From assembly GCA_039588295.1 (NCBI GenBank), contig JBDHAB010000006.1, positions 18,358-82,357 on the forward strand: a stretch of 64,000 nt of DNA. Direction: 5' to 3'. The stretch's first letter is position 1. Each line of letters opens with the position of its first letter. Source of the DNA: Gemmatimonadota bacterium. GTDB taxonomy: Bacteria; Gemmatimonadota; Gemmatimonadetes; Gemmatimonadales; GWC2-71-9. The position numbers and the translations under genes are program-made. Shown here in pieces: positions 27,055 through 44,643 of this stretch. The notes under the pieces were generated by a model. That model did no database searches and was not told the DNA's origin. It worked only from the letters and a program-made list of their open reading frames with translations.

Positions 27055-27057
27055 GTG

Positions 27058-28089: not shown

Positions 28090-28103
28090 GCCGGACTCAC
28101 CGC

Positions 28104-28574
28104 ATGAACGCTGATCCCGACGGCGTGAAGCGACTGGTCTCGGCGCGGCAGGCGGTCACGCTGATGGCGAGCAGTAGCCAGCGCGTACACACAGCTTCCC
28201 TCGCAGAGATTCTGGCGGGGTCCGATTGCTCAACGGTGGTGTTGGAGGCACGGCTTTCGAACGGTGACGAATTGATGGCGCACATCTTGATGGACTTCGT
28301 GCAGCCTGCGGAGCTGGAGCTAGCCGTCCCACGTGTCGAGGGCGAGGTTGAGCGAGTTCCACGTGGATACCGATTGACGTTGACGTCGAACTCGCTGGTG
28401 AGGAACGTGGAGCCTTCCCCGGACGTGGCTGCGGCCCAGTTCTCTGACAATTTCTTCGACTTGCTGCCCCGCGGGCACAAGACCGTGCAGCTCGCGACGA
28501 CTGAGCGATTGAACGTCACGGAGGTGTTGGAAATCAGAACGATGGTAGATTCCTGCAGAGCGCTGCATGCATAA
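28104..28574 (+). CDS. Hypothetical protein (weak; region has lower GC3 than its neighbours)
   Basis: ORF ends 8 nt into the cysteine-desulfurase gene; no domain recognised; competing antisense ORF at 28097..28771. Confidence 0.25.
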   Translation: MNADPDGVKRLVSARQAVTLMASSSQRVHTASLAEILAGSDCSTVVLEARLSNGDELMAHILMDFVQPAELELAVPRVEGEVERVPRGYRLTLTSNSLVRNVEPSPDVAAAQFSDNFFDLLPRGHKTVQLATTERLNVTEVLEIRTMVDSCRALHA

Positions 28575-29799
28575 CGTCGCTTCGACAGATCAGATACGCG
28601 CATACTTCCCGGCGCTGCAACGTAGAGAAGCCGGCTACCCCGTTGCCTATTTCGACGGTCCAGGTGGGACGCAGGTTCCACATCCCGTTGTCGACGCGGC
28701 GACAGACTACCTCTATCATCACAACGCCAACACGCATTGGAACTACCCGACTTCCAGTGAGACCGATGCATCGCTCGAGCACGCGCGCCGCGTGTTTGCC
28801 GGGTTCTTGCATTCGGCTCCAGAGGAAATCGTGTTCGGTGCTAACATGACGACCCTCACGTTCCATCTCGCGAGGGCGCTCGGGAGAAGGCTCTCCGCCG
28901 GGGACGAGATCATCGTGACGGAGCTGGACCATCACGCCAACATCGCCCCCTGGCAGGCGCTCGAGGCGGAACGGGGTGTGCGGGTCCGTTGGGCCCGCAT
29001 GATTCCTGAGACCGGGCAGCTCGACCGGGAACATCTCGAAGGCCTTGTCAATGCGCGTACGAAGGTCGTGGCAGTCGGAGCAGCGGCGAACGCGCTGGGA
29101 ACCGTCAACGATGTTCGCGCGGTTGCGGATTGGGCACACGCGGTAGGGGCCCTCGTGTTTGTGGACGGCGTCCACTACGCACCACACGCACTGCCAGACA
29201 TGCAAGCCTTCGATTGCGATTTTTTCGCCTGCTCGCCGTACAAGTTCTATGGCCCGCATCTCGGAGTGCTGTTTGGACGGCGCGAGCTGCTCGACTCGCT
29301 GGAGTTCGCAGAACTCGAGCCGGCGTCCCATGTGGCACCCGAACGGGCGGAGACCGGGACCCTGAATCATGAGGGTATCGTCGGTGCCGCCGCGGGTGTC
29401 GAATGGCTGGGATCCCTCGCTGAAGGCAGCGCGCTCCGCACGCGCCTTGCGACCACATACCGAGTGCTCGAGCAGCGCGGCGGCGAGCTCTTCGCCGCGA
29501 TGTGGGAGGGACTGACCGCAGTGCCTGGCGTTCGGCTGTACGGCCCGCCACCCAATGCGCCGCGGACGCCGACCCTGGCGCTCACCGTTGACGGCACGCC
29601 ATCCTCACGCGTGACACGGCAGTTGGCCGAACGGGGTGTCTTCACGTCGCACGGGGATTTCTATGCGCTGACCGTGGTCGAACGCCTCGGGCTGCTTCCC
29701 GAGGGACTCGTTCGCGCGGGCTGCGCCTGCTACACCACCGCGGAGGAAGTCGACCGTCTCATAGGGGGGATACGCGCGTTGGCCGACGGTGGCGCGTAG
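28567..29799 (+). CDS. Class-V aminotransferase / cysteine desulfurase (SufS/CsdA/selenocysteine-lyase-like)
   Basis: Fold-type I PLP enzyme with active-site Cys region GCACYT near the C-terminus; DHHANIAPW; S-x-(Y/H)-K motif region FACSPYKFYGP. Confidence 0.75.
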   Translation: MHNVASTDQIRAYFPALQRREAGYPVAYFDGPGGTQVPHPVVDAATDYLYHHNANTHWNYPTSSETDASLEHARRVFAGFLHSAPEEIVFGANMTTLTFHLARALGRRLSAGDEIIVTELDHHANIAPWQALEAERGVRVRWARMIPETGQLDREHLEGLVNARTKVVAVGAAANALGTVNDVRAVADWAHAVGALVFVDGVHYAPHALPDMQAFDCDFFACSPYKFYGPHLGVLFGRRELLDSLEFAELEPASHVAPERAETGTLNHEGIVGAAAGVEWLGSLAEGSALRTRLATTYRVLEQRGGELFAAMWEGLTAVPGVRLYGPPPNAPRTPTLALTVDGTPSSRVTRQLAERGVFTSHGDFYALTVVERLGLLPEGLVRAGCACYTTAEEVDRLIGGIRALADGGA

Positions 29800-29853
29800 A
29801 GTCGATGTGCGACGGTGACGCCAGTCGCCGAAACCGTGCCCGCTGTTCCTTCT

Positions 29854-30501
29854 CTAGAATCCGAACGACACGCCGATTGACACGACCGGGTAAAACCGCA
29901 CCCAGTTGATGTCGTCTTCGAACGCCACTTCCTCCCGCTGCAGCTCCGTTTGAAACGTCGGATCCGTCGAGATCGGGCCGCTTGCCGCGAGCTGAGCCTC
30001 GGGCTTCCCGTGAAACGCTAGCCCAAAGTCGAGAATGAACCCGAGTCCTCGCTTGGCGATGTTGCCAAATCCGATGCCGAGGTACGGAGCCAGCTCGTTC
30101 GTTGCAACCACCGCACTCAGGGTGCCGACGTCCGCCGCTGTGTAGGTGACGTTCCCGATGTCGACGGAACTGAGAAGCGTTCCTGTTGCCCCGGGGTCTT
30201 CCGTGGACAAACGGGCGCCGCCGCTCAGCCGCAGCCCACCCACGAGGAAGAGATCCACCATTGCGGTGAGCTGGGGTGAAGGAATGTCAAACTCGTACTT
30301 GATATCAGCGAGCGTAATGCTCGGAGTTATGGGGAAAAGGTTCGCTCCGACCCGCACTCCCACGCGATCGTTGACTGAGATGCCGACATCGGCCCCCAGT
30401 CCCATCGTCCCCACGTGAGGGGCGACGCCAATGCTCTGTGCGGTCACCACCGATGTCCCAACCACGGCCACGACGCTGAGAAGAGAGAGGACGCGCGTCA
30501 T
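29854..30501 (-). CDS. Small outer-membrane beta-barrel protein (OmpA-like N-terminal barrel / OmpW-like)
   Basis: Signal peptide MTRVLSLLSVVAVVGTSVVTAQS; alternating hydrophobic strands; C-terminal ...GVSFGF. Internal Met chosen as start. Confidence 0.55.
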   Translation of the reverse strand: MTRVLSLLSVVAVVGTSVVTAQSIGVAPHVGTMGLGADVGISVNDRVGVRVGANLFPITPSITLADIKYEFDIPSPQLTAMVDLFLVGGLRLSGGARLSTEDPGATGTLLSSVDIGNVTYTAADVGTLSAVVATNELAPYLGIGFGNIAKRGLGFILDFGLAFHGKPEAQLAASGPISTDPTFQTELQREEVAFEDDINWVRFYPVVSIGVSFGF

Positions 30502-30699
30502 AGAGAACCCCGAGTGTGAGTCCCGAATACTTTCAGGTCTGTCGTGTATACCATAAGAGAACGTCTGTGGCACACGGTGGCAACGATGTGAGCAGTGGAG
30601 TGGTTGACGTGCGTGGAGCGTTCGTTCGGTCACGCGTGCTTGCGGAGGCCGTCGGGGCGGAACAGATTCCGACGACTGGAGAGGGATGGATCGGACGTT

Positions 30700-31359
30700 A
30701 TGCTGGGCATCTACATTTTCGCCGCGATTGTTGGCGGAGGGCTACTCCTTCTCTCCGTGCTGGGCGGTGGGGAACACGACGCCCATGCGGATGCCTCGGG
30801 ATTCGATGCGGACCACGACATCGGCCACGACCTGGGGCACGACATCAGCCACGACGTGGGACACGACGTCGGGCATGACGCCGATGCGGTTCACCATGTT
30901 CATGGTGGTGCCGGTGAAATCGTCCTCGGCCTGTTTCGGCCGCGCAACGTGACTTTCTTCCTCGCAGGATTCGGGCTGACCGGGACGCTGCTCACGCTTC
31001 TCAGCCCGTCGAGCGCCGGAGCCAGCCTGATTCCCTCGGTGGTCATGGGGTTCGGCGCCATGGTCGTGACGCACGGTGTGTTCACGTGGCTGCGGCGCAG
31101 CGAGAGTGCGGTCGATCTCGTGAGCGATGCTGACATGGAGGGGTGTCTCGGGCGCGTCGTGTTGCCGCTGGCTCCGGGAGAGCGCGGACGCATCGCGTGC
31201 AAGGTGGGCGGCCGCGAGGTTTACCTCGTCGCGATACTCGCCGAGGGGTATGTGGAGGCACTTCCACCGGGACGTGAAGTCGTGGTGCTGCGCGTATCGG
31301 AAACCGTTGCGCACGTCATGCCGTTCGAGTCACGCGAGCTTCCACCTTCAACTAGCTGA
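30700..31359 (+). CDS. NfeD-like membrane protein with C-terminal OB-fold and an internal His-Asp repeat
   Basis: N-terminal TM (MLGIYIFAAIVGGGLLLLSVLGG), second TM pair, C-terminal beta-rich OB-like region; lies upstream of flotillin, the classical pairing; (HDxGHD)n insert. Confidence 0.6.
   Translation: MLGIYIFAAIVGGGLLLLSVLGGGEHDAHADASGFDADHDIGHDLGHDISHDVGHDVGHDADAVHHVHGGAGEIVLGLFRPRNVTFFLAGFGLTGTLLTLLSPSSAGASLIPSVVMGFGAMVVTHGVFTWLRRSESAVDLVSDADMEGCLGRVVLPLAPGERGRIACKVGGREVYLVAILAEGYVEALPPGREVVVLRVSETVAHVMPFESRELPPSTS
30811..30882 (+). repeat. Six tandem 12-nt repeats (CACGACnnnGGn) encoding the (H-D-x-G) histidine/aspartate repeat
   Basis: gaccacgacatc ggccacgacctg gggcacgacatc agccacgacgtg ggacacgacgtc gggcatgacgcc. 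Confidence 0.6.
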
Positions 31360-31366
31360 GGGACGT

Positions 31367-32635
31367 ATGGACCCAACTGCCGGAGTGATCCTTGGAGGGA
31401 TAGCTCTCGGACTCGTCGGAGCGCTGATCTACGCCGTGCGTTCCTTGATCGTGATCTGTCTACCCAACGAGATGGTGGTCGTCACTGGCCGGAGTCGTGT
31501 CGCGGCGGACGGTCGTCGGATCGGCTACCGCGTTCTCCACGGTGGGCGCACCTTGCGCATTCCCATCGTGGAGCGGGTTTCGCGCATCGATCTGACCACG
31601 ATCCCGCTCGATGTGACCGTGCGCAATGCGTACTCCAAGGGTGGAATTCCGTTGATCGTTCAGGGCATCGCAAACGTGAAGGTCAGTGCCCGCGATCCCA
31701 CCTCTCACAACGCGGTCGAGCGACTGCTGGACAAGCCGTTCGAGGAGTTGATGCATATCGCGAAGGACACCTTGGAGGGCAATCTCAGAGGCGTGCTGGC
31801 TACACTCACGCCGGAAGAGGCCAACGAGGACCGACTGAAGTTCGCGCATCGGCTCATCGAGGAGGCGGACGAAGATCTCAAGAAGCTTGGCTTGGAACTC
31901 GACACGCTGAAGATCCAAAGTCTCACCGATGAGGTGAACTATCTGGACTCGATTGGGCGGCAGCAGACGGCGGAGATCCTCAAGAAGGCCCGTGTGGCCG
32001 AGGCGCAGCGCGCATCCGAGGCGGAGCAAACGGAAGCGGGTGCGCGCCAAGCCGCGCAGGTCGCGGCGATCCAAGCCGATCTCGCCATTACCGAAGAAAA
32101 CAACCGGCTCCGGGTACGTCGGGCCGAACTCGAAGCGGAAGCCCTTGCCCGCGAGGCCGAGGCAAAGGTCTCCGGCGAGAAGGCCCGCGTCGTGGCGGAG
32201 CAGGTTCTCCAGCACGAGCGCATCGCGCTGGAGCAGCGTCGTCTCGAAGCCGACGTGCTGCTCCCGGCACAGGCCGACCGAGAGGCGGCGGAGCAACGCG
32301 CCAAGGGGTCGGCAGCCACGATTGCCGAAGACGGCAAAGCACGGCTCTTCGTACTGGGGGAGACGATCAAGCTCTATGAATCTGCCGGCAGCGAAGCTGA
32401 ACGCATCTTCATCTTGAATATGCTGCCGGACATCATCCACGAGATTGCACACTCGGTCGAGGGCGTTGATATCGACAAGGTCACGGTGATCGACTCCGGA
32501 GGCCGCAGCACCGGCGTTGCCTCGGCTACGGGACAACTCCCCGAGGCGATCATCAAGCTGACGGAGCAGATCGAGACGGCCACAGGCGTGAATATCCTGA
32601 GTCGTCTGGGAGAGAAGTCGGCGAAGAAGTCGTAA
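31367..32635 (+). CDS. Flotillin (SPFH/band-7 domain, FloA/YqiK-like) with long Ala/Glu/Arg-rich coiled coil
   Basis: N-terminal TM, then SPFH core (PLDVTVRNAYSKGGIPLIVQGIANVKVS), EA-rich flotillin repeats and C-terminal conserved region; internal ATG 31367 is the start. Confidence 0.8.
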   Translation: MDPTAGVILGGIALGLVGALIYAVRSLIVICLPNEMVVVTGRSRVAADGRRIGYRVLHGGRTLRIPIVERVSRIDLTTIPLDVTVRNAYSKGGIPLIVQGIANVKVSARDPTSHNAVERLLDKPFEELMHIAKDTLEGNLRGVLATLTPEEANEDRLKFAHRLIEEADEDLKKLGLELDTLKIQSLTDEVNYLDSIGRQQTAEILKKARVAEAQRASEAEQTEAGARQAAQVAAIQADLAITEENNRLRVRRAELEAEALAREAEAKVSGEKARVVAEQVLQHERIALEQRRLEADVLLPAQADREAAEQRAKGSAATIAEDGKARLFVLGETIKLYESAGSEAERIFILNMLPDIIHEIAHSVEGVDIDKVTVIDSGGRSTGVASATGQLPEAIIKLTEQIETATGVNILSRLGEKSAKKS

Positions 32636-32788
32636 CCGCGGTTCCACCGTCCCGCACCGCTGCGACCCACGGCCACCTGCTCGAGTTCGGGATGGTGGCC
32701 GTGGCTTCACGAAGGCTTCACGGTCCATTCAATCTGCGCCGGATAGGCTCCATGCCTCCCGTGCGCCGACCACCTACAACGAGACGAG

Positions 32789-33835
32789 ATGTACACCACT
32801 TGCATCTACTGTAAGCGTCCGCTCGGAGCCAACGAGGTGATCGAGTGCTTCCCCGTTGGGCGTCGGTTGGCGTTCGACGTGGAGAAGGGGCGGCTGTGGG
32901 TGGTGTGCCGACGATGCGAGCGCTGGAACCTGTCACCACTCGAAGAACGCTGGGAGGCGTTTGAGGAGTGTGAGCGGCTGTTTCGCTCGACTCGTCTTCG
33001 GATGTCCACCGATGAGGTAGGACTGGCGAAGGTCAAGGAAGGGCTCGAGCTCGTGCGGATTGGGAAGCCGCTCCGACCCGAGTTTGCCGCATGGCGGTAC
33101 GGTGATCAGTTTGGACGGCGTCGGAGGCGGGCGATGATCTGGACCGGGGCGGGTATCGTGGCCGTGGGAGCGGTCACCGCAGGCGGCATCGCTCTTGGAA
33201 TCGGTGCTGGCTTCGCACCGCAGATTCCCAATCTCATCATGAATGTCCCGGTCCGAGCGCGCGTGCGCGCCCCTGACGGTCGGGTTCTCAAATTCCGCAA
33301 CGCGGACATGCATAAGGCTCGGTTCCTGATGGAGCCGGGGTCGGACGACTGGGTGATCTCGGTCAAGCACAGCAAGGGGAAGGAGACCTTCATGGGCCCC
33401 ACCGCCATGCATATCGCGAGTCACCTGCTCCCCGCGTTGAACCGCATGGCTGGTTCGCGACAAGCCGTTCGCACGGCGGTCGACCGTATCGAAGCCGCGG
33501 GCGATCCGGAGCGGTACCTCGAGGGCCTCTCGCACGAGATCGACCCAAACAAGCCCGAGCCCGGGTATGGTCGCCCCCTGTTCCCCGGTAAGCCCGGCGT
33601 CATCCACAAACTTCCGACACCGACCCGGCTCGCGCTCGAGATGGCGCTTCATGAGGAACAGGAGCGTCGCGCGTTGGCGGGCGAGCTGATCGAACTCGAG
33701 CTGGCGTGGAGAGAAGCGGAGGAGATCGCAGGCATTGCGGATGACATGTTCGTTCCCAAGGAGTTCGAGGAGTTCGCTGAGCGGCACCGAGTCACGGCTT
33801 GCGACGAAGCACCTGATGATGATGATCGAGGCTGA
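32789..33835 (+). CDS. Hypothetical protein with N-terminal Cys4 zinc-ribbon, central TM segment and acidic C-terminus
   Basis: CIYC...CRRC motif; hydrophobic segment MIWTGAGIVAVGAVTAGGIALGIGAGFAP; no family recognised. Confidence 0.5.
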   Translation: MYTTCIYCKRPLGANEVIECFPVGRRLAFDVEKGRLWVVCRRCERWNLSPLEERWEAFEECERLFRSTRLRMSTDEVGLAKVKEGLELVRIGKPLRPEFAAWRYGDQFGRRRRRAMIWTGAGIVAVGAVTAGGIALGIGAGFAPQIPNLIMNVPVRARVRAPDGRVLKFRNADMHKARFLMEPGSDDWVISVKHSKGKETFMGPTAMHIASHLLPALNRMAGSRQAVRTAVDRIEAAGDPERYLEGLSHEIDPNKPEPGYGRPLFPGKPGVIHKLPTPTRLALEMALHEEQERRALAGELIELELAWREAEEIAGIADDMFVPKEFEEFAERHRVTACDEAPDDDDRG

Positions 33836-33933
33836 CCCACGCGTCGCGACGGCGGACGGGCTGGCGCGCCCAGGACACTCGAGGATCTTCGCGGGCATCC
33901 GGGGTAAGAAACGGACAAGGCGCTGCGTCCGTA

Positions 33934-36138
33934 GTGCATGTACGGATCCTACAAGTGGAGTTTTGGGTGGTCGTCAGTCTTCGTAACCGAGTTGGACAGG
34001 CTCTGTCGAGCCATTACGACCTCGAGCGCGAGCTCGGTCGCGGAGGAGCGGCCGTCGTTTACCTGGCACACGACCGCAAGCATCGGCGAGACGTGGCGAT
34101 CAAGGTCATGCACCCCGAACTCGGAGCGTCCATCGGCGCAGAGCGCTTCTTGCGCGAGATCGAAATCGCCGCCCAGCTCAGCCACCCCCACATTCTGCCG
34201 CTCTACGACTCCGGGGAGCTCAACGGATTCCTGTACTACGTCATGCCGTACGTCGCCGGTGAGTCCCTGCGCCAGCGGCTCCACCGGGAGGGAAGGGTCT
34301 CGCTCGACGAATCGCTCCGTATCGCCCTGGATGTCGCGGATGCGCTGACGTACGCGCACGGACGGGGCGTCGTGCACCGGGACATCAAGCCGGAGAACAT
34401 CCTGCTGGAATCGGGCCATGCCTTGGTGACCGACTTCGGGGTCGCGCGAGCGATCTCTGCAGCCGGCAAAGACCGAGTAACGCTGCCGGGGATGGCCGTC
34501 GGCACCCCAACCTACATGAGCCCTGAGCAAGCCGGCGGTGATGAGCCCGTGGATGAGCGGGCAGACATCTATGCGCTCGGATGCGTGCTGTTCGAGATGT
34601 TGGCCGGCGAGCCGCCCCACTCGGGACCGAACCCACAGGTCATTCTCGCTCGGAAGGCCGCCCATCCCGTCCCCAACTTCGGCCATATTCGAGACGCAAT
34701 CACGGTCTCGCTGGAGCGCGTGCTCCGCAGAGCGCTTGCCTGGGAGCCGCGGGACCGATTCTCCACGTCGGCTGAGTTTGCCGAGGCCCTCTCCGCTCAC
34801 GCGGCGAACTCTCCGCCAAATGGGCACGTGGCCGTGGCAACGGCCACGTCGGTAGCCCGCTCGATCGCCGTGCTGCCGTTTGCGAACATGAGCCCCGATC
34901 CGGAAAACGAGTACTTCAGCGACGGCATTGCCGAGGAGATCACCAATGCCTTGGCCAAGATTCAGTCGCTGCACGTGGTGTCGCGGACCTCGGCGTTTGC
35001 GTACAAGGGGAAGGACCAAGACGTGCGGAGGATTGGTGACGCGCTCGGCGTGGGAACGGTGCTCGAGGGGAGCGTGCGGAGGGCGGGTCGGCGGCTCCGG
35101 ATCACCGCCCAGTTGGTGAGCGTCACCGACGGTTATCACCTGTGGTCCGAACGGTATGACCGGGAAGCGGAGGATGTGTTTGCGATTCAAGATGAAATCG
35201 CCCGGAGCATTGCTGATGTGCTCGAACTCATGCTGACCGATGAGGAGAAGCGTGCTCTCGAGAAGCCTCCGACCGTGAACGTGGAAGCGTACGAGTGCTA
35301 CCTTCGCGGTCGGTACTTTCTGCATCTGTTTCAGAAAAACACGGTTCGGCATGGCAGGGATATGTTTGCGCGAGCGATCGAGATCGATCCCAACTATGCC
35401 TTGGCGTTCGCCGGATTGGCCGACTGTTGCTCGTTTCTCTACATGTACTTCGACGGCAGCGCGCCCATTCTCGAAGAGGCGGATGCCGCGAGCCGTCGGG
35501 CACTCGACCTGGACCCCGGCCTCGCCGAAGCCCACGCGGCTCGGGGCCTGGCCGTGGCACTGCGCCAGCGCTATGCGGAAGCGGAAGCCGAGTTCGAAGA
35601 GGCAATCCGCCTCAACTCGGCGTTGTTCGAAGCCTTCTACTTCTATGCGCGGACCTGCTTTCAGCAGGGGAAGCTCGAGTCCGCCGTCGAGTTGTTCGAG
35701 AAGGCCTGTGAAGTCCATGACGACTATCAGGCCCGACTGCTCGCCGCCCTGAGCTACGCCGGTCTCGGGCGGGCCGACGATGCGCGAGCAGCCTACCAGC
35801 GGGCGCTCCGCGCCACCGAACGACATCTCGAGCTCTCACCCGGTGACTGCCGTGCGCTGACACTCGGGGCGGGGTGCCTGGCTCGACTTGGCCGTGAGCG
35901 CGAAGCGATCGAGTGGTGTGATCGCGCGCTCGGCATCGATCCGGATGACCCCGTGGTGGTCTACGCGGTTGCATGTGTAGACGCCGTGCTCGGACGGACC
36001 GACGTGGCGCTCGACCGACTGGAGCAGGCCATCCACGGTGGATTCGGGAACAAGAAGTGGATCCAGAACGACCCGGATTTTGCCACCGTCCGCGAGCACC
36101 CCCGCTTCCAGGAACTCGTGGCCGTAAGCCCGGACTAG
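33934..36138 (+). CDS. Ser/Thr protein kinase fused to a TolB-N-like (CsgG/LpoB-fold) domain and C-terminal TPR repeats
   Basis: Hanks kinase motifs GRGGAAVVYLA, VAIK, HRDIKPENILL, DFGVARA, TPTYMSPE; then IAVLPFANMSPDPENEYFSDGIAEEITNALAK...; then TPR-like helices. Confidence 0.85.
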   Translation: MHVRILQVEFWVVVSLRNRVGQALSSHYDLERELGRGGAAVVYLAHDRKHRRDVAIKVMHPELGASIGAERFLREIEIAAQLSHPHILPLYDSGELNGFLYYVMPYVAGESLRQRLHREGRVSLDESLRIALDVADALTYAHGRGVVHRDIKPENILLESGHALVTDFGVARAISAAGKDRVTLPGMAVGTPTYMSPEQAGGDEPVDERADIYALGCVLFEMLAGEPPHSGPNPQVILARKAAHPVPNFGHIRDAITVSLERVLRRALAWEPRDRFSTSAEFAEALSAHAANSPPNGHVAVATATSVARSIAVLPFANMSPDPENEYFSDGIAEEITNALAKIQSLHVVSRTSAFAYKGKDQDVRRIGDALGVGTVLEGSVRRAGRRLRITAQLVSVTDGYHLWSERYDREAEDVFAIQDEIARSIADVLELMLTDEEKRALEKPPTVNVEAYECYLRGRYFLHLFQKNTVRHGRDMFARAIEIDPNYALAFAGLADCCSFLYMYFDGSAPILEEADAASRRALDLDPGLAEAHAARGLAVALRQRYAEAEAEFEEAIRLNSALFEAFYFYARTCFQQGKLESAVELFEKACEVHDDYQARLLAALSYAGLGRADDARAAYQRALRATERHLELSPGDCRALTLGAGCLARLGREREAIEWCDRALGIDPDDPVVVYAVACVDAVLGRTDVALDRLEQAIHGGFGNKKWIQNDPDFATVREHPRFQELVAVSPD

Positions 36139-36230
36139 CCGCCGAGCCGCGCACCCCCTATCCTACATATCAGACAGTTCTCGTCACTTTTCCCTGTCCG
36201 TTCAGGACCCTTATCGTCGGGAGACAATCG

Positions 36231-36704
36231 ATGACACCACATCGGTGGAAGATGCTCCTCGGAGGGGCGGCTGTCGTAGCCGTCACCTCGGTCGGGTTGG
36301 CGGCGACCCAGTCGTCCCAAGCGAGGGCGGAAGCGACGGTCACCGTCTACAAGACTCCCACTTGAGGGTGCTGCAACCAGTGGGTCGTGCACCTGCAAGA
36401 GAATGGGTTCGACGTGGAGACCGTGGAAGTGGATGGCCTGGCCCAGGTCAAGGCCGAACACGGCGTGCCACAGGCGCTGGAGGGATGTCACACTGCCGTG
36501 GCCGATGGATACGTGATCGAGGGTCATGTGCCGGCCGACGTGGTTCGGAAGTTGCTCAAGGAGCGACCCGAAATCGCGGGCGTGGCGGTACCGGGCATGC
36601 CGATTGGCTCTCCGGGCATGGAGGTGCCGGGCAGGACGCCTGAGCGGTACGACGTGGTGGCCTTCGCCAAGGATGGCAAGACAACGGTCTACGCACGCCG
36701 ATAG
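36231..36704 (+). CDS. DUF411/CopG-family periplasmic metal-binding protein interrupted by an in-frame TGA (36363-36365) at the first Cys of the conserved CxCC motif; selenoprotein candidate or pseudogene
   Basis: ATG 36231 gives signal peptide MTPHRWKMLLGGAAVVAVTSVGLAATQSSQA then TVTVYKTPT-[TGA]-GCCNQWVVHLQENGF...GCHTAVADGYVIEGHVPADVVRKLL...GVAVPGMPIGSPGME, colinear with DUF411. The track only reports the GTG-started remnant 36387..36704. Confidence 0.55.
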
Positions 36705-36788
36705 ACGTACGGACAATCAAAGGTGGAGGACAAGCGGAGCCCCAACCCGGACCAGCGGGGGGGCTCCGAAGGTTCATGGGCGGGCGTT

Positions 36789-37590
36789 GAAAGTCGCAGA
36801 CCCTGTGGTGACGGCGGGTCCGCACCGGTGGCTGTTGCCACGCGAGCACGGCGCGTATGCGGAACTGTTGTTCCCCGTGGTGACGGGCTGGGCGAGTCGT
36901 TCACCCGACGTGGCAACCGTGCTCTTCACGGTGGCTGTGGTTGCGGGCTTCCTTTCCTATGAGCCGCTGATGGTTCTACGAGGAGTCCGGGGACGCCGGC
37001 TGCAGGACGCACTCGGTGAGACGGCCCACACGCAGTTGCTCCTGTTCCTCTCCGTCGGCACGGTGACCGGCGTGCTGGCAGTTGCCCTGACCGGGACCGC
37101 CACCCAAGTGGCAGCGCTCGTTCCGGCGGCCTGTGCGGTTGCCCTGCTTCCGTGGCTGTACCGCCACCGACTGAAGACCCTGGCGGCGGAGATCCTCGTG
37201 GTAGCGGCGTTCTCGGCGACGGTCTTGCCGCTGGCGGTCAGGGAGGCCGCCGATTGGCGGTTCGCCTGGACGGCCGCTGCCGTGTGGTGCGGCAGCTTCA
37301 CTCTGGGCACGCTGGCGGTCCATGCGATCAAAGTGCGCCACAAGCAGACGGTAGGCGTGCGATGGTCGCGCCCGGCGGCACCCGCGCTCGCCCTTGTTGC
37401 GGTCGGGATCGGAGTCGTGGGACCCGTGCTGGGAGCGATTCCTGTGACTACGGGCGTGGCGCTGGTCGTGCCGGCCGTACTCGCGGGCCTGTTCAGCGTC
37501 CTGCCTGTACATCCACGGCGCTTAAAGAGAGTGGGGTGGTCGTTGGTTGTGGCGAACGTCATCACGCTGGTACTGCTGCTCCTCAGGTAG
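36789..37590 (+). CDS. Polytopic membrane protein, YwiC-like (start uncertain: TTG 36789 or GTG 36804)
   Basis: WLLPREHGAYAELLFPVVTG N-terminal motif followed by about 8 hydrophobic segments. Confidence 0.45.
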
Positions 37591-37893
37591 GCCGAGTGCG
37601 CCGACTGGGGCTTTCCGTATGGCCGAGATCGTACGCCGATGGATCTGACCATTCCCGATGCCGCGCTGTCGGAGTTGGCGGCAGCGTTCTTTCAAGCGAC
37701 GATCACGCTCGGGTTGGTGCTCCTGTGCGCGTGGGCCGTAGCGACGCGTGCGTTACGGATGAATCGCGGTTCGGCTGGGGGGGATCGTGGTATCCCGGTC
37801 TGCCATTGCGGGACGGGTGCCCATGACCCACCTTTCGCGGTCGCGGCGCCCGTGTGGGCGCCGACGCAGCGACTGTATTATGGGAGGATGCTC

Positions 37894-38430
37894 ATGCGGT
37901 ACCTGTTGACTCTCGCGCTCCTGACCGTGCCCGCGGGTCTCGTGGCCCAAGAGGCTGGTAAACCGATGCCGCCGCACTATCGCGAAGTGCAGGTGCGGAT
38001 GCTCGAGCTCCAACGGGACATGCTGTTGGCGATGGCGGACTCGATGCCGGAGTCCTTGTATCGCGAAGCCGCAACGCCGGCCCAACGAGACTTTGCCCAG
38101 CAGCTCCATCACGCCGCATCGACGATCGTGTTCATCGGCGCGCGGTTCGCAGGTGCCACGCCGCCGGCCCTGCCGGACACGGCGACCGTGCTCAACGGTC
38201 GCGAAGGTATGCGCGGGTATATCAACGCCGTCTATGATTTCGGCGTCCAGGCGCTCAAGGATCAGTCGGATGAGGCTCGCGCGACCGTTGTGTCGTTCTT
38301 TGGGGGTCAGCAAATTCCCAACTGGCAGGTCTGGGATGAGATCCACCAGCACACGATTTGGACGGCCGGGCAGTGCGTCGCCAACTTCCGCAAGCACGGC
38401 ATGGCACCGCCAGGATTCGGGTTCTTCTAG
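37894..38430 (+). CDS. Secreted DinB/YfiT-like (DinB_2) four-helix-bundle metal-dependent protein
   Basis: Signal peptide MRYLLTLALLTVPAGLVAQEA; His-containing helices (HHAAST..., H..TIWTAGQ); GGGAGG RBS placed for ATG 37894. Confidence 0.55.
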   Translation: MRYLLTLALLTVPAGLVAQEAGKPMPPHYREVQVRMLELQRDMLLAMADSMPESLYREAATPAQRDFAQQLHHAASTIVFIGARFAGATPPALPDTATVLNGREGMRGYINAVYDFGVQALKDQSDEARATVVSFFGGQQIPNWQVWDEIHQHTIWTAGQCVANFRKHGMAPPGFGFF

Positions 38431-38496
38431 CGCCCGAAGAGCGCTTCTCGGTTGTTGGAGGGTCGGAACCGACTGTAACGATTTGGAGGGAGTACG

Positions 38497-38745
38497 ATGG
38501 GTGATCCTATCTCACTCGATCACTTTGTGACCAAGATGGAAGGGCTCAACGATGAGATGCGGGGCGGCCAACTCAAGCACGGGGAGTACGACCAACGCTT
38601 GGCGCGCATCATCGGTGAGCTGCGGGACCGGAAGATTGATGCAGACCGATCGGACATCAACACGGCGATCGACGGCCTTCTGGGCCGCGGTGTGATCACG
38701 CCGGCTGTGAAGGAACACCTCCTCAGCCGCCTCGGTCTCGAATGA
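38497..38745 (+). CDS. Small protein with SHOCT-like C-terminal motif
   Basis: GGAGGGAG RBS 8 nt upstream; C-terminal LLGRGVITPAVKEHLLSRLG resembles the SHOCT short C-terminal domain. Confidence 0.45.
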   Translation: MGDPISLDHFVTKMEGLNDEMRGGQLKHGEYDQRLARIIGELRDRKIDADRSDINTAIDGLLGRGVITPAVKEHLLSRLGLE

Positions 38746-38802
38746 TCCAATGGGCGCCCGGCCGCTTCGGCCGGGTGCCCGTTACCCGCGCTGGTCGACC
38801 GC

Positions 38803-39621
38803 CTATCGCACCGTGCGAAACCAGGCCCAACCGGCGAGACCGGGCCCCAAGATCCAGAATCCCAGAGAGAGCATCGCGACGGCAACCGTCCCGATGATCC
38901 CGATTCGCTGTACAATACCGGCGCCGATGGGCCCGAGCAGGCTAAGGTCCGTGTCGAGCGTCGCAATGACACCCACGCGAAATGCTTCCACCGGATTCAC
39001 GAAGGTCCATGCCACCAGGGAGGCCTCCGGCAAACCCAGGCGAATGAATGCCGTGATGATCCCGAGGGAACCGAACGCCACCAGTACGAGCCACAAGACG
39101 ATGCCCACGGTCGTTGCACGAGCCCGCGTTCGGGCAATCGTGGAGAGACACATGCCGACTGCGACGAATGCGAGGGCGAGAAGGGCGACAAAGACGAAGA
39201 GGGCCATCACCCAATGGGGAGGGACACCGCGCAGCACCGCTACCCCACCGGCGGTACCGAAGCCGATCGTGAGCGACAGAAGCACGGCCACGCTCATGCC
39301 GGCCCACTTGCCCGCGTAGATCTCGCCAAAGGTCACCGGCTGAGCGAGGAAGTACTCGAGGGCTCCGGACTCGCGATCCTCGGTGATGGCGGCGGCGGCT
39401 GGAAACAAGGCCATGAGCGGTACGAACAGCAGGGCGATGTGGATCATTCCCGCGAAGGCTTTGGCGAAGCTGCGGTAGCCGACGATCGCAGTTGTCCCGG
39501 CTCCCAGCGTCACCAGCAGCAGTCCGCCGATGAAGAAGATCACGGAGTAAGCAAGGAACCAGCGGGCACGGAGTGACCCCGTGAGTTCCCGCCGCACCCA
39601 GAGCAAGAGGCGTGGCATCAC
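38803..39621 (-). CDS. nosY: ABC-2 type transporter permease (NosY-like)
   Basis: Six-TM ABC-2 permease; stop/start overlap with the upstream ATPase; part of the nos cluster. Confidence 0.7.
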   Translation of the reverse strand: MMPRLLLWVRRELTGSLRARWFLAYSVIFFIGGLLLVTLGAGTTAIVGYRSFAKAFAGMIHIALLFVPLMALFPAAAAITEDRESGALEYFLAQPVTFGEIYAGKWAGMSVAVLLSLTIGFGTAGGVAVLRGVPPHWVMALFVFVALLALAFVAVGMCLSTIARTRARATTVGIVLWLVLVAFGSLGIITAFIRLGLPEASLVAWTFVNPVEAFRVGVIATLDTDLSLLGPIGAGIVQRIGIIGTVAVAMLSLGFWILGPGLAGWAWFRTVR

Positions 39622-40565
39622 GGTTCCGTCAGCCCGTTGGTCACCGCGGTACCGTGTGTGCTGCTGTCCTCCCCGAGCACGTGCTCCAGGATCTCGTGCA
39701 GGGAAGGGCTGTCTACCCAGAAGTCTTCCACTGGAATCCCAGCCTCACGGAGCCCCACGAGGATACCTATTCGAGCCGTCTGATCGACTCTGACACCCAC
39801 GGCCGTTCCGTTTGCGAGGACTGGCGGCAACTGGCGTCGCGAGTGTAACCACGCCTCGGCGTGTGAACGACGATCCGCCGGCACCTTGATCCAGAGAACC
39901 GAAAGAGCGCCTAAGCGTTCGCGCAGGTCGGTCCGATCACCGTCGAACACGATGCGTCCTTGATGCAGCACCAGCAGGCGATCGGTGACCGCCTCCACGT
40001 CTGCCAGACGGTGCGACGCGAGCATGATCGTGGTTTGCGGGTCGGCGTTCGCGACAACTCGGAGGAACTCGCGCCGGGCTCGTGGGTCGAGGTTCGCCGT
40101 CGGCTCGTCCAGGAGTAGCAGCGGGTTTCGCTCTCCAAGCGCGAGTGCCAGGAGCACCTTCTGGAGCATACCACCCGAGATCGTGTGCAACGCTTTGTGT
40201 CCGTGATCGTCCATGGAGAGTCCCAGCGCCGCGAGCTTCTCGTGCACCATCGCGCTGTCAGCCTGTCGGAGGCGCGTGAGAAACTCGACCACCTCCCCGA
40301 GCGTACCGCTGAAGTGGGGTGCTCGTTGGGGCACGTACCCGATGAGCGCACGGGCGTCTCGACTGGCGGATCGCACGTTTCGGTCACCAACCCACAACTC
40401 GCCGCGGAATGGGACGAGGCCAAGCAGGCAGCGCAGGAGCGTCGTCTTGCCGGCGCCATTGAGGCCAAGGAGCGCGATCCGCTCGCCCGGTTGCACGGTG
40501 AAGTCGAGGTCCTGGAGTACCCAGTGACGGCCGAGCTGCGTCGCGAGCCCCGTCGCCCGTATCAT
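39618..40565 (-). CDS. nosF: ABC transporter ATP-binding protein (NosF-like)
   Basis: Walker A GLNGAGKTT, signature ISGGMLQKVLLALAL, Walker B LLLLDEPT. Confidence 0.8.
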   Translation of the reverse strand: MIRATGLATQLGRHWVLQDLDFTVQPGERIALLGLNGAGKTTLLRCLLGLVPFRGELWVGDRNVRSASRDARALIGYVPQRAPHFSGTLGEVVEFLTRLRQADSAMVHEKLAALGLSMDDHGHKALHTISGGMLQKVLLALALGERNPLLLLDEPTANLDPRARREFLRVVANADPQTTIMLASHRLADVEAVTDRLLVLHQGRIVFDGDRTDLRERLGALSVLWIKVPADRRSHAEAWLHSRRQLPPVLANGTAVGVRVDQTARIGILVGLREAGIPVEDFWVDSPSLHEILEHVLGEDSSTHGTAVTNGLTEP

Positions 40566-41938
40566 CGATGACCCGCCGCGGATCGTTTGAGGTACGGGAC
40601 GATCGCGCTGGCAATCACGGCGGCGGCAAAGAAGCCGGCCGCGGCGGGCAGCGACGACTTCTGCTCGCTGGGGCCGCCCGACCGGGTCGTGGCCACGAGT
40701 CTTGGCAGGGAGTCGACGACCACAGGCTCGGGTGCAAGTAGGGGAAACACGCGCCCCAGGAGATTAAGGGCGGTGGTGGCTAGAGACAGGTTGTAGAGTC
40801 GCAGACCCTGGTGTTTCGCAAACAGGTCGTCGGAGAGCCGCTCATACACGAACGGCATGTCGCCATGCCCGTCTCCGTCGGCATCGAACCCCACGTAGTC
40901 GCTCCAGTAGTTCTCAAGCCAACGATTGCGGAGTGCGGTGCCGCCACCTGCCACGGCCACGGGTTGCACGTTGTCAATGAACTGGTTTGCGCGGAAGACG
41001 TTTCCGTGCACCGAAGGAAGCATTGCCACCGCGACATCGTTGTACGCCACGACGTTGTCTTCGAACTGGTTGCTGGCCCGCTCGGACGACGGGGAGTTGT
41101 CCAGCGAGATCCCCACGGCGTTCTTGATCATGAAGTTCCCAACCGCTCGGATATCATCGGAGTCCTTGAAGCCGATGCCGCGTCCAGTCGTGCCTTTCGC
41201 ATGGGCGAACACATTCCCCCGGAAGGTGATGCCCCGCGAGTACATGATGAACGCGCCGACGCGATTGCCGTGAAACGCGTTGTCTTCAAACACATTGTGA
41301 TCGCTGTACATGTAGTGCAGACCGTAGCGACTGTCCTGCACCTGGTTGCCCCGGATCAGCGTACTATCCGAAAACCAGATCACCAGGTCGCGGACGCGGT
41401 CCAAGCGATTGTCAGTGACCGTGCCGTTGTGGCTGTACCAGAAGTGGATCCCGTCACCGCGCAGCGGGAGCGCCAGGTTCTTTCCCTCGATGCTGTTTCG
41501 GCGGACGATCGCATTGTGGCACTGCTTGAGATAGATCCCGAACAGCACATCCTCGAATTGGTTGTCCTCGATGCGCACGGCATCGGCCCCGTCCGCGATG
41601 ATTCCGGAATCTTCCCGAGATTGATCGCTACCTGACCCACGAATCACGAACCCACGGACCGTCGCCGATGCGCGGATCACGATGACGCTGCCTCGCCCAT
41701 CTCCTTCGATCACGGTCCCGGGCTCGCCCACGAGCACCACGGGGCGGTCCAGCAGGAGGTGTTCGTGATACGTGCCGGCTGTGACGACGATGGTGTCGCC
41801 CGGCGCCGCTGCTTGCAGTGCATCCCGAATGGTGGCGTGGTCGCCCTGCGGGCCAACCGTGAGTTGTGAGGCCTGAAGTGCCAGGAGAGCAGCGTAGACG
41901 ATCACGTTACGCCGTCTTCTTGAACCGCCGCCACTCAA
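40562..41938 (-). CDS. nosD: Periplasmic copper-binding parallel-beta-helix protein NosD
   Basis: Repeated NxxxxN beta-helix turns (IRGNQVQDSRYGLHYMYSDHNVFEDNAFHGNRVGAFIMYS...); directly downstream of nosZ/nosB and upstream of nosF/nosY. Confidence 0.85.
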   Translation of the reverse strand: MSGGGSRRRRNVIVYAALLALQASQLTVGPQGDHATIRDALQAAAPGDTIVVTAGTYHEHLLLDRPVVLVGEPGTVIEGDGRGSVIVIRASATVRGFVIRGSGSDQSREDSGIIADGADAVRIEDNQFEDVLFGIYLKQCHNAIVRRNSIEGKNLALPLRGDGIHFWYSHNGTVTDNRLDRVRDLVIWFSDSTLIRGNQVQDSRYGLHYMYSDHNVFEDNAFHGNRVGAFIMYSRGITFRGNVFAHAKGTTGRGIGFKDSDDIRAVGNFMIKNAVGISLDNSPSSERASNQFEDNVVAYNDVAVAMLPSVHGNVFRANQFIDNVQPVAVAGGGTALRNRWLENYWSDYVGFDADGDGHGDMPFVYERLSDDLFAKHQGLRLYNLSLATTALNLLGRVFPLLAPEPVVVDSLPRLVATTRSGGPSEQKSSLPAAAGFFAAAVIASAIVPYLKRSAAGHR

Positions 41939-42518
41939 GGAACACGACCACCGGGCCGATCAGTCCGGCGATGCCCATGAGGATCGCTCCCAACGCAGGC
42001 CAGCTCGAGACGGAGAACTGCCCGACGGCGGTCGGTCCGATGAAGTGCGGGGTGAACGGGTCGATCTTGAGCGGGGCCGTGGGAGAGAGGTCGTGGCCGT
42101 ACTCGTACAGCCAGTGTTGCAGAGTGTACAGCATGACCGCACCGAACAGGACGAAGTCCATCCAGCCGAGTGCGGCGATCGGCATCCGGCCGATCAGCGC
42201 CGTGAGGAGCGCGAACGCGAAGAACCGCAGAATGAAGAATGGGATGAAGCGAAACTCCGGAAACTCGTCGGCATCGATCTCCTTCATCCCGATGTAGTGA
42301 TTGAGCAAGTTCACTTCGGAGACATCGCCCTCGACGGTAGTCGGGTGAATCATGACCGCGAGCCCATCCGGGTACTGCGGGGCGCGCAACGTGATCCGCC
42401 ATGTCGGGAGGAATGCAGCGGGGAGAATCGCGAGCGTTGCCGCGACGATCAACACACGGCTCGTATATGACAGTTGAGTTTGAAAGAACGTCGTGATCTT
42501 GTCCATGGATTCCATCAT
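41907..42518 (-). CDS. nosB: Integral membrane protein in the nosB position of clade-II nos clusters
   Basis: Four to five TM helices; sits between nosZ and nosD; start placed at ATGATG (42513-42518) preceded by AGGAGA. Confidence 0.55.
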   Translation of the reverse strand: MMESMDKITTFFQTQLSYTSRVLIVAATLAILPAAFLPTWRITLRAPQYPDGLAVMIHPTTVEGDVSEVNLLNHYIGMKEIDADEFPEFRFIPFFILRFFAFALLTALIGRMPIAALGWMDFVLFGAVMLYTLQHWLYEYGHDLSPTAPLKIDPFTPHFIGPTAVGQFSVSSWPALGAILMGIAGLIGPVVVFLEWRRFKKTA

Positions 42519-42620
42519 CGAGATTCTCCTCATTGGAGCGGCGGGGCCCCAGTGCCCCTCCACCCACCGTGCGGGAGGGCGGATCGTGGGTGGAGGGGTG
42601 TGTGTCGAGCTACGAGGTCG

Positions 42621-44579
42621 TTATCGTGGCTCGACCAAGAGATAGCCCGCCATCTCGAGATGGAGCGCGGAGCAGAACTCCGTGCAGTAATACGGGTAGA
42701 CGCCCGGCGCGTCGGCAACGAACGCCACCGTCTCCGATTCGCCCGGTTCCAGGCTCAGGTTGATGTTGTATTTTGCGATTCCAAATCCATGGGTGGCGTC
42801 GTGTGCCGTCTCGACACTGGTGATGTGAACGATGACACTGTCGCCCTCACGCACGCGTACCCGCTCGGGATTGAAGTGCGAGCGTATCGCGGTCATGTAG
42901 ACGTGTACGGTGTTGCCTCGACGTTGGATTCGCTCTTGTCCAAGCTGCACCGCGTTGGCGGACGGCCCCATGGTTCCCGGGCTGTATCCGACCTGCGGGT
43001 ACACCCGAAACGGCTGCAGTTTGTCGGTCTTGATCATCTGCGCGTAGTGCGGCTCCCCGATGCCGATGGGCATGTCGTAGAGCAGCTGCATCTTGTCGCC
43101 CGAGATGTCGATGAGCTGGAAGTTCTGCGGCAGGAGCGGCCCCACATCGTTGAAGCGGTCGAGCGACCACTTATCCATCGCGATGAGGTACTTGCCGTCA
43201 GGCGACTTGGTGTCGCCCTCCGCCGTGGCAAGGTGGCCGACGTTGTAGTGCACGCCGATCGTGTCCAGCCACTGGAGCGGATTGAGGCTCCACTTCGTGA
43301 CTTTGGTGTCGAGGAAGATGGACGTGTAGGCGTTCCCCTTGTCGTCGAACTGGGTGTGTAACGGTCCCAGGCCTACCTCGAGCTGACCGTCGAGCACCGA
43401 GGCGAAGTCGAGGATCGGCACACCGTACGCGTCGTTGCCGCTGAAGACCTGATTCTCGATTGCCTGCTGGATCTTCTCCCACGAGTAGACGGTGACGTGG
43501 GGATCGAGCTTCCCGGATACGACGATGAAGCGGCCGTCTGGCGTCACGTCGGCACCGTGTGGGCTCTTGGGTTCCGGAATGAAGAAGAGAATCCCCTCGT
43601 CGATCGCCGTCTGGAGCGGAATCACCCGCTGGCCGCGTGCCATCCGAGTGTTGCCGGCGGTGGCCGCAATCTCTGCCGCCTTCTGCCAGTTGATGACGTG
43701 CATGTAGTCCATGTCATTGGCGGACGCACCGGCCTCGAACGCGGGGTTCCCGCTCTCGATGCCCCCGGTGGCCATTTCGGTATTGAACGAATTGAGGAAC
43801 GCCCATCCGAAGGACGGTCCCTTGCCGGCATCGGAGAGATCGTGCCAGTACGGGGGAAGCTCGATCGAGAACGACGCGGCCTCGTCGATTCGCCCGCGGT
43901 CGCGGTCGAACTTCCACATCGTGATCAGCCCTCGATAGTCCTGCTCGTACCGATCGAGTTCGGCATAGTCGACCCACAGCGGCACCGAGTACTGCGCGCC
44001 CTCGATCACGTACTCGGTGTTGGGTGTGACGAAGGCTCCACCGTGGTTGGTGCCCATGTTCGGATTGGTCACGATCTGCTTGGTCTCGAAGTCCCGCAGA
44101 TCGATGACCGCGATGCGCGGATTGGCCTTGTCGTTGATGAACAGGAACTGACCGTCGTAGTCCGCGTCGGTCTCGGACAGGGCAGGATGGTGCGTATCAC
44201 CCCAGGTGATCTCATGGCCAGCCATGCGTCCGCTCGCCATGAGCTCCTTGTGCTCCTCGGCGCCGTACCCGTATCCCTGCCAAGGCTCCGGTGTGAACGC
44301 CGCGATCACCTTGAGCAGGCGCATGGAGGGAACCCCGATGACCAGGACTTGGCCCGAGTGTCCGCCAGACGAGAACAACATGTACTCGTCCATCTGGCCT
44401 GTCGGCTGATAGGTTTTGAGTGCGGCCACCATGTCCGCGTCGGTCAGGCCTCGATTCCGGGCGATGGAGCCGAGATCGGCGCTGCCTCCCGGCGTGGCGC
44501 AGGATCCCATCCCGGCAACGATGACCACAGTGATGGCTACGGTGAGGGCGAGTCCCCACCCCAATCTCTTGGATTGCAT
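42621..44579 (-). CDS. nosZ: Nitrous-oxide reductase NosZ, clade-II-like (Sec-type lipoprotein signal)
   Basis: Signal peptide with lipobox-like GMGSC (not a Tat motif); beta-propeller CuZ domain with conserved His; C-terminal cupredoxin CuA site HGFGI...YYCTEFCSALHLEM. Confidence 0.9.
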   Translation of the reverse strand: MQSKRLGWGLALTVAITVVIVAGMGSCATPGGSADLGSIARNRGLTDADMVAALKTYQPTGQMDEYMLFSSGGHSGQVLVIGVPSMRLLKVIAAFTPEPWQGYGYGAEEHKELMASGRMAGHEITWGDTHHPALSETDADYDGQFLFINDKANPRIAVIDLRDFETKQIVTNPNMGTNHGGAFVTPNTEYVIEGAQYSVPLWVDYAELDRYEQDYRGLITMWKFDRDRGRIDEAASFSIELPPYWHDLSDAGKGPSFGWAFLNSFNTEMATGGIESGNPAFEAGASANDMDYMHVINWQKAAEIAATAGNTRMARGQRVIPLQTAIDEGILFFIPEPKSPHGADVTPDGRFIVVSGKLDPHVTVYSWEKIQQAIENQVFSGNDAYGVPILDFASVLDGQLEVGLGPLHTQFDDKGNAYTSIFLDTKVTKWSLNPLQWLDTIGVHYNVGHLATAEGDTKSPDGKYLIAMDKWSLDRFNDVGPLLPQNFQLIDISGDKMQLLYDMPIGIGEPHYAQMIKTDKLQPFRVYPQVGYSPGTMGPSANAVQLGQERIQRRGNTVHVYMTAIRSHFNPERVRVREGDSVIVHITSVETAHDATHGFGIAKYNINLSLEPGESETVAFVADAPGVYPYYCTEFCSALHLEMAGYLLVEPR

Positions 44580-44622
44580 GCTAAGGAACTCCTGAGTTGG
44601 TGACAGCTGAGACTTGCACGGG

Positions 44623-44643
44623 ATGATAATACGATATTATCAT
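44623..44643. promoter_or_regulatory. Perfect 9-3-9 inverted repeat ATGATAATA-cga-TATTATCAT in the AT-rich nosZ / Rrf2 divergent intergenic region; operator candidate
   Basis: Palindrome read directly; the only AT-rich island in the 127-bp divergent promoter region. Confidence 0.4.

Follow-up and report, generated by a model that had tools for sequence, protein, structure and literature searches.

The closest described relatives of the gene considered here are CopG from P. aeruginosa (6WIS/6WJE) and CutG from Rhodobacter capsulatus. The CopG-like proteins are periplasmic, they adopt the thioredoxin fold and hold a tetranuclear copper cluster by means of a CxCC motif and two methionines, and what they add to copper resistance is observed chiefly in the absence of oxygen (PMC7558416; PMC8456105). 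In both of these papers, which cite Hausrath et al. 2020, the motifs of Cys and Met are regarded as copper ligands, and for CopG an interconversion of Cu(I) and Cu(II) with handover of copper to other cuproproteins, i.e. a role as a copper oxidoreductase or donor, has been proposed (PMC7558416; PMC8456105). In a stretch of 64 kb from a Gemmatimonadota bacterium (contig JBDHAB010000006.1 of assembly GCA_039588295.1), which we will refer to as the window, a gene of this family (DUF411) carries an in-frame TGA where one would expect the codon for the first Cys of CxCC. Based upon comparisons of sequences, we give a probability of roughly 0.87 to the reading that this UGA (36363-36365) encodes selenocysteine (Sec), and that the product is a functional Sec-containing CopG/DUF411 protein with the motif U45-G-C47-C48. 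A Sec-containing DUF411 protein (U-x-C-C) had been proposed earlier from inspection of the same DNA (the sequence-only reading), and this proposal is now supported by the presence of TGA in relatives and by the enrichment of hairpins downstream of it.

Selenoproteins of the thioredoxin fold typically carry Sec at the N-terminal position of the CxxC motif. In the UxxC selenoproteins of this fold (among them Sec-glutaredoxin, Sec-thioredoxin and the DsbA-like proteins), Sec likewise replaces the N-terminal Cys at the start of helix 1, and, as in the DUF411 family, Cys-containing homologues coexist with the Sec forms and a hairpin follows the UGA inside the open reading frame (ORF). The Sec-DUF411 protein differs from them in its U-G-C-C motif, where the extra Cys gives a site that resembles a metal cluster rather than a plain dithiol/disulfide. 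A second point of comparison is provided by selenoproteins predicted to handle metals: the cation-transporting ATPase E1-E2 (UxxC), the SO_0444 Cu/Zn efflux transporter (UxC) and SaoT, for which UxxC and CxCC forms are known, have Sec at a presumed soft-metal ligand, and SaoT also shares with the present family the otherwise rare CxCC variant of the thioredoxin motif (Table 1, PMC13188914). In contrast to Sec-DUF411, these three are mostly from anaerobes; they are also unrelated to it (no hidden Markov model match), and for Sec-DUF411 a solved homologue defines a multinuclear copper cluster. Sec-DUF411 would belong with the known Sec/Cys selenoprotein families of the thioredoxin fold, and its UGA would be decoded by the ordinary bacterial system of SelB and the selenocysteine insertion sequence (SECIS).

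The gene and those of its parts that are referred to below are as follows, all of them on the + strand:

36219-36224, + strand: Shine-Dalgarno-like GGGAGA, 6 nt 5' of ATG 36231, read from the sequence; its function is presumed.
36231-36704, + strand: complete gene for a predicted CopG/DUF411 selenoprotein, 157 codons including the UGA as codon 45, identified by translation, Pfam and its match to CopG 6WIS.
36231-36329, + strand: predicted signal peptide, residues 1-33, with n-region HRWK, core LLGGAAVVAVTSVGLAA and A-R-A before the predicted cleavage site, recognized by inspection.
36363-36365, + strand: in-frame TGA, the predicted codon for selenocysteine (U45), in place of the Cys that opens the CxCC motif of the copper cluster.
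36366-36374, + strand: G46-C47-C48, the remainder of U-G-C-C, which follows the TGA and precedes every possible start codon downstream of it.
36366-36397, + strand: candidate SECIS, consisting of two alternative hairpins with the common 3' strand GCACCUGC, from folding and the clade consensus, with predicted SelB binding.
36477-36620, + strand: DUF411 Pfam core, containing C86-H87 (GCHT), H99 (GHVP) and M123...M130 (GMPIGSPGM, the M-x6-M copper-ligand motif), from Pfam and the CopG alignment.

A single frame, from ATG 36231 to TAG 36702-36704, specifies a signal peptide followed by an entire CopG/DUF411 domain, and the TGA at 36363-36365 is the sole in-frame stop between them. In the order of translation, MTPHRWKMLLGGAAVVAVTSVGLAATQSSQARAEATVTVYKTPT is followed by the TGA, by GCCNQWVVHLQENGF and then by GCHTAV, GHVP, PGMPIGSPGME and VYARR, after which the terminal TAG is reached. 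The leader MTPHRWKMLLGGAAVVAVTSVGLAATQSSQARA, which is basic and then hydrophobic, leads into the strand-loop ATVTVYKTPT and then directly into the TGA; its n-h-c organization with A-R-A, as judged by eye, points to export to the periplasm. The succession of a signal peptide, the DUF411 N-terminus, the TGA and an intact DUF411 domain had been described in the sequence-only reading, and it is confirmed by translation and Pfam.

For the search against Pfam, the protein was queried with a Cys written at the TGA position. It matched DUF411 (PF04214) with 90.4 bits (Pfam cut-off 27; E=5.8e-26) and also, over residues 37-76, the Glutaredoxin family (PF00462) with 25 bits, and according to this second match the TGA is the codon that begins the CxxC of the thioredoxin fold. 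A phmmer search against all PDB chains detected one family only, the P. aeruginosa CopG (6WIS/6WJE; E=7.5e-32), over the whole mature domain. In the alignment with 6WIS_A (query residues 3-121 with chain residues 5-121), by which a thioredoxin-like fold is predicted for the protein, the TGA codon is aligned with the first Cys of N-C-G-C-C, in agreement with the earlier statement that the TGA replaces the first Cys of CxCC. The residues C47, C48, C86-H87, H99, M123, and M130 are all intact, and with C47 and C48 in place and UGA at the first position, the CxCC motif is complete only on condition that the UGA specifies Sec, an isosteric analogue of Cys. The window protein has in common with CopG and CutG its family, fold, periplasmic site and similar size, as well as the x-C-C, GCHT, GHVP, and M-x6-M motifs; it is unlike them in that a UGA stands for the first Cys of CxCC and in that its gene lies outside any cop/cus/multicopper-oxidase operon. 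Further, whereas the CopG cluster is a Cys-bridged, tetranuclear copper cluster, the binding of metal by the window protein is predicted from homology.

Evidence for the Sec reading comes from other assemblies and from the relatives of this gene. An independent Joint Genome Institute (JGI) contig, Ga0452209_010302 (L083, 36 kb), has the identical TGA; over 18.5 kb it is 99.84% identical to window 26387-44875, with 4 mismatches and one gap, so close a match that the two contigs may stem from strains living together or from one population sampled twice. Related loci were collected by a genome scan, covering one genome per GTDB species, and by a metagenome scan of JGI contigs, the best 80 loci being taken from each. 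Among the genome loci, this codon is TGA in 23/80 and TGC/TGT in 54/80, with 3/80 not parsed, and TGA is likewise present in 23/80 of the metagenome loci. In the combined dataset, 46 of the 160 related loci have TGA and 109 have the Cys form (TGC/TGT), and TAA or TAG was found at this codon in none of the 160; the TGA forms, to which we will refer as Sec forms, thus account for ~29% of the 160 closest loci. This distribution goes beyond what chance would give. They are found in Gemmatimonadota, in Vicinamibacterales and other Acidobacteriota, in Rokubacteria/Methylomirabilota, in Chloroflexota (Anaerolineae, Caldilineaceae, and Ardenticatenaceae), in Binatia and in delta-proteobacterial metagenome-assembled genomes (MAGs).

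Both 5' and 3' of the TGA, the encoded protein sequence is conserved. An in-frame hydrophobic or lipoprotein-type leader is present 5' of it in 24/24 Sec forms examined, and V-Y-K-S/T-P-T precedes it in every one of these; after it comes G/D-C-C-x-x-W, and the frame then remains open for 110-115 codons up to the normal C-terminus. The G/D-C-C is kept in 47/47 Sec forms, which makes sense only if translation passes through the TGA. In some of the Sec forms (L034, L085, L089, L095, and L119) the motif is U-D-C-C instead of U-G-C-C, and in several Chloroflexota proteins, of both the Sec and the Cys form, Tyr replaces the conserved His of W-V-x-H-L. In two syntenic orthologues, one from a Gemmatimonadales MAG (L002) and one from a metagenome contig (L084), which share with the window the gene order Ser/Thr kinase - DUF411 - YwiC and are 70% and 73% identical to it, respectively, in the mature domain, the codon is also TGA. 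A comparison of this codon in orthologues had been suggested with the sequence-only reading, and its outcome, i.e. TGA in the two syntenic orthologues and in many distant relatives with conserved coding on both sides, favors the proposal made there. In comparative work, a selenoprotein is by convention recognized from just this, the occurrence of Sec/Cys pairs and a sequence that stays conserved across the UGA.

In a neighbor-joining tree of these sequences, which is poorly resolved, the Sec forms branched in several clades, and parsimony required 8 changes between the two states. Judged by the codon present, the predicted Sec forms are distributed over 5-8 clades at the least, and the family is one that switches repeatedly between Sec and Cys. 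Among the nearest relatives of the window gene (70-74% identity), both Sec forms and Cys-form lipoproteins are found. The closest full-length proteins in the databases (P0027, P0049, P0056, P0067, and P0040; 70-74% in the mature domain) are all Cys-form lipoproteins, in which a long Ala/Pro-rich linker connects the lipobox to the domain, compared to the short leader of the Sec form in the window.

The Sec forms are misrepresented in public gene calls. The public protein collection contains the exact 105-aa product that results from a start at GTG 36387 (P0001), and for L083 (9866-10318, corresponding to window 36252-36704) the gene caller gives a 37-aa ORF that ends at the TGA together with a 105-aa DUF411 ORF. 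In a library clustered at 50% identity, ~19 of the best 150 representatives that match the truncated product are calls of ~105 aa, including all of the four best matches; they start at or just after W-V-x-H-L or directly at C-C, and lack both the leader and CxCC. Truncation of this kind is the artefact that annotation of a Sec gene would be expected to produce, and its frequency indicates that the Sec forms are common and are systematically mis-annotated.

Directly 3' of the UGA, the minimum-free-energy (MFE) structure of the window is the hairpin GGGUGC.UG.CAACC[AGUG]GGU.CG.UGCACC (-14.7 kcal/mol), in which 36366-36371 are paired with 36389-36394 and the apical loop AGUG occupies 36379-36382. 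A stem GGTGC...GCACC that had been noticed earlier by eye forms part of this hairpin. In the consensus of the clade to which the window belongs (RNAalifold), the alternative hairpin has 6 bp, formed by 36380-36385 with 36391-36396, and a loop CGUGC (36386-36390). Such hairpins were found in three of the four clades analyzed by RNAalifold: the consensus for a large second group has 7 bp and a triloop starting with G, and that for the Vicinamibacterales has 7 bp and the loop GGUCUUG. A G as the first or second nucleotide of the apical loop, which is the reported consensus for bacterial SECIS elements (PMC13582414), was observed in 21/24 Sec forms. The validated E. coli fdhF SECIS is similar to the window structure in that it is an intragenic hairpin immediately 3' of the UGA, of nearly the same energy (-14.9 vs -14.7 kcal/mol), with its apical loop ~20-25 nt from the UGA and with GGUC at +21 (fdhF, where it lies in the loop) vs +20 (window). 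The two differ in that they share no sequence homology and no Rfam match, and in that the DUF411 structure varies by clade; binding of SelB to the latter is a prediction.

The longest uninterrupted helix centered +20 to +26 nt after the codon was also measured in Sec and Cys forms, with control offsets at -57, +60, +120, and +180; this position-specific measure was adopted after the folding energy of the whole region failed to discriminate between them. The mean helix length was 6.7 bp in the Sec forms (n=47) and 5.0 bp in the Cys forms (n=109), and a helix of >=7 bp was present in 28/47 of the former compared to 10/109 of the latter (Mann-Whitney p=9e-12 for helix length, loci being taken as independent), despite the lower GC content of this region in the Sec forms (57% vs 62%). 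At -57, +120 or +180 the Sec forms showed no such excess of helix, and at +60 the excess was slight. The two forms also differ in the residues encoded here: codon +8 specifies V/G/A/S/L in the Sec forms vs E/D/K in the Cys forms, and codon +10 is Leu in 43/47 Sec forms, Met being found in 30/109 Cys forms. A search for a SECIS-like structure, as the sequence-only reading had advised, has thus yielded a candidate hairpin and, at this position, an enrichment of helix in Sec relative to Cys forms. The evidence from RNA is position-specific and supportive of Sec, and it falls short of proof.

The coding sequence for W-V-x-H-L (UGGGUN...CACCUG; window 36380-36396, A1 columns 18-34) is self-complementary even in the Cys forms. 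This property may predispose DUF411 genes to repeated conversion from Cys to Sec.

A number of results weigh against the view that the UGA is decoded as Sec. At the level of RNA, the window hairpin taken alone is unremarkable (z=-1.4), and the folding energy of the first 48 nt does not separate Sec from Cys forms, partly because the W-V-x-H-L codons (UGG GUN ... CAC CUG) are self-complementary. RNAalifold gave no single consensus structure over all 47 Sec forms, the hairpins of the Chloroflexota Sec forms are weak, and an Rfam scan of the window produced no match. Covariation on a fixed helix is weak because the core pairs are fixed by the Trp/His/Leu codons, and controls with slid partners reached similar scores. 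Further, the Sec-vs-Cys helix statistics are calculated as if the loci had no shared phylogeny. With respect to the decoding machinery, a tRNA scan of the window gave no match, and neither in its 64 kb nor in the ~1 Mb of loci fetched was a tRNA-Sec detected by ARAGORN or a selA, selB or selD by tblastn, for which the E. coli SelA/SelB/SelD served as queries; such an absence is to be expected for 64 kb of a multi-megabase genome. No statement on Sec decoding in Gemmatimonadota was found in the literature. In favor of Sec, there are reports of selenoproteins from Acidobacteriota, Chloroflexota, and Methylomirabilota, and 63 selenoprotein genes were predicted in one Methylomirabilota MAG. The genome that carries the window is presumed to contain selABCD.

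Three other explanations of the TGA have been considered. The one that survives best, which we nevertheless regard as improbable, is that the UGA is passed without Sec, either by near-cognate read-through at a low level (with Cys or Trp) or by a restart at GTG 36387, which would give a leaderless 105-aa protein with no CxCC. It draws on the fact that the presence of Sec machinery in this organism is itself presumed, and on the existence of GTG 36387, which is used by the public gene call; in 17/47 Sec forms a possible start is found only at codon +7. However, 11/47 Sec forms have no ATG, GTG or TTG within the 14 codons after the TGA, and in the others the position of the start varies. A product of restart also does not require the leader and the G-C-C that are conserved before any restart site, and a leaderless protein that has lost three cluster ligands would not be a CopG. 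The exact replacement of a redox/metal Cys, together with a position-specific enrichment of hairpins, is a signature of Sec and not of leaky termination.

A recent nonsense mutation in a decaying pseudogene is less probable again, and we consider it very unlikely. A single base change converts TGC/TGT to TGA, gene callers treat the gene as broken, and genes of the Sec machinery were absent from both the window and the loci fetched, all of which such a mutation would accommodate. Against this, 46/160 relatives from several phyla and clades have TGA, among them the syntenic orthologues (70-73% identity), whereas TAA and TAG do not occur at this codon; the window gene itself has no other stops or frameshifts and retains its leader, G-C-C and all downstream ligand motifs. 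A nonsense mutation of recent date cannot be reconciled with the pattern of Sec/Cys pairs and of conserved sequence beyond the UGA, and by these comparative data it is effectively refuted. Lastly, a sequencing or assembly error for a true TGC/TGT, which would need only a single base in a metagenome assembly, has a negligible likelihood, since it is ruled out by the identical TGA in the separately assembled Ga0452209_010302, and the TGA state recurs in 46 unrelated assemblies.

If the UGA encodes Sec, the expression and function of this protein may be envisaged as follows. Translation would start at ATG 36231, as the Shine-Dalgarno-like GGGAGA and the conserved leader suggest. At UGA 36363, a stem-loop within the ~35 nt that follow would recruit a complex of SelB-GTP-Sec-tRNA(Sec), so that Sec would be inserted without termination; for this step, the UGA is kept at the Cys position, the flanking coding sequence is conserved and hairpins are enriched, and the interaction of SelB with the SECIS is predicted. 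The signal peptide would then export a mature protein of ~124 residues, whose thioredoxin fold is indicated by the observed homology. As in CopG, a copper site would presumably be built from U45, C47, and C48 together with M123/M130, and the selenolate, located at the N-terminal nucleophilic position of CxxC, could serve as a ligand or redox partner of this site. From the general chemistry of Sec, U45 would be softer than a thiolate, of lower pKa and more reversible in its oxidation, and it may in this manner tune Cu(I)/Cu(II) in the periplasm.

With regard to previous descriptions of this family, a search of the full-text literature for DUF411 with selenocysteine or selenoprotein returned none, and for CopG or COG3019 nothing relevant. 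A May 2026 review, which presents itself as the most comprehensive inventory of selenoproteins and gives domain accessions, does not include PF04214 among its 119 prokaryotic selenoprotein families/subfamilies (PMC13188914). The window protein matches none of the NCBIfam selenoprotein models (release June 2026), and the family is absent from the deep-Sep supplementary lists; the BSepDB and the groundwater-MAG lists of Deng et al. 2026 were outside this comparison, and an unnamed listing in them is possible. The U-x-C-C CopG proteins are apparently a genuine selenoprotein family that has not been catalogued. For the broader proposal, that a widespread and uncatalogued DUF411/CopG selenoprotein family exists in soil, sediment and groundwater, with Sec possibly placed in a multinuclear copper site, we regard the chances as about even.

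If this proposal is true, selenium could be placed in a multinuclear copper site, at the position homologous to a cluster-binding Cys. Such a natural Sec variant at a ligand position of the Cu4 cluster would provide a ready probe of CopG (by Se K-edge spectroscopy or 77Se nuclear magnetic resonance), and it would bear on the question of what makes Sec preferable to Cys where soft metals are bound. The family would offer many natural Sec/Cys pairs and repeated switches between the two states, and it would add a family from aerobic/facultative soil phyla (Gemmatimonadota, Vicinamibacterales, Rokubacteria, and Chloroflexota) to a catalogue that is dominated by anaerobes. Of practical importance, the public calls split or truncate these genes, and the proteins in the databases thereby lose both the leader and the metal site.

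In the vicinity of the DUF411 gene, a large Ser/Thr kinase with tetratricopeptide repeats (33934-36138) is located on the 5' side, and a YwiC-like (PF14256) membrane protein is encoded directly on the 3' side (window 36787-37590, + strand; L002 3577-4329; L084 2337-3077). No terminator-like site is present between the DUF411 and YwiC genes, and the two may be co-transcribed. The YwiC-like gene is followed by one for a DinB-like protein, and the DUF411 side then converges on a clade II nitrous-oxide reductase cluster (i.e. that of the Sec-dependent type, in which Sec denotes the export pathway) at 38803-44579 on the - strand. The genes of this cluster are:

42621-44579, - strand: nosZ, matching TIGR04246 with 862 bits.
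41935-42567, - strand: an ORF of 210 aa in the nos cluster, with no family name.
40562-41938, - strand: nosD.
39618-40565, - strand: nosF.
38803-39621, - strand: nosY.

No recognizable NosL-like copper chaperone is present in this cluster, and the Sec-DUF411 gene lies ~2 kb beyond nosY on the opposite strand. As a speculation, the DUF411 protein might condition or supply copper for nitrous-oxide reductase; adjacency to a nos cluster was not seen in the sequence fetched around the other Sec-form loci. The neighbors of Sec forms in other lineages (20 ORFs, 13 of them with a Pfam match) are heterogeneous housekeeping genes, and a copper-resistance family was represented in 0/13 of those matched to Pfam. 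Overlapping shadow ORFs confounded the clustering by which neighbors conserved next to the Sec-form genes were sought.

The class-V aminotransferase at 28567-29799 (+ strand), which the sequence-only reading had mentioned as a possible selenocysteine lyase, is a real gene; its product matches TIGR01976 ("cysteine desulfurase-like protein, VC1184 family") with 440 bits, above the cut-off, and its score for SclA is far below the cut-off, so that the role as a lyase is rejected. Scans of the window for other in-frame-TGA selenoprotein candidates, based upon third-position GC content (GC3) and codon-usage scores, gave none that was convincing, these scans being insensitive enough that the DUF411 gene itself was not flagged. 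Near the nos cluster, a large beta-hexosaminidase of family GH20, which also has a PA14 and a chitobiase C-terminal domain, is encoded at 45955-48336 (- strand), and between this gene and the nos cluster lies an ORF of 306 aa (44823-45743) with no family name.

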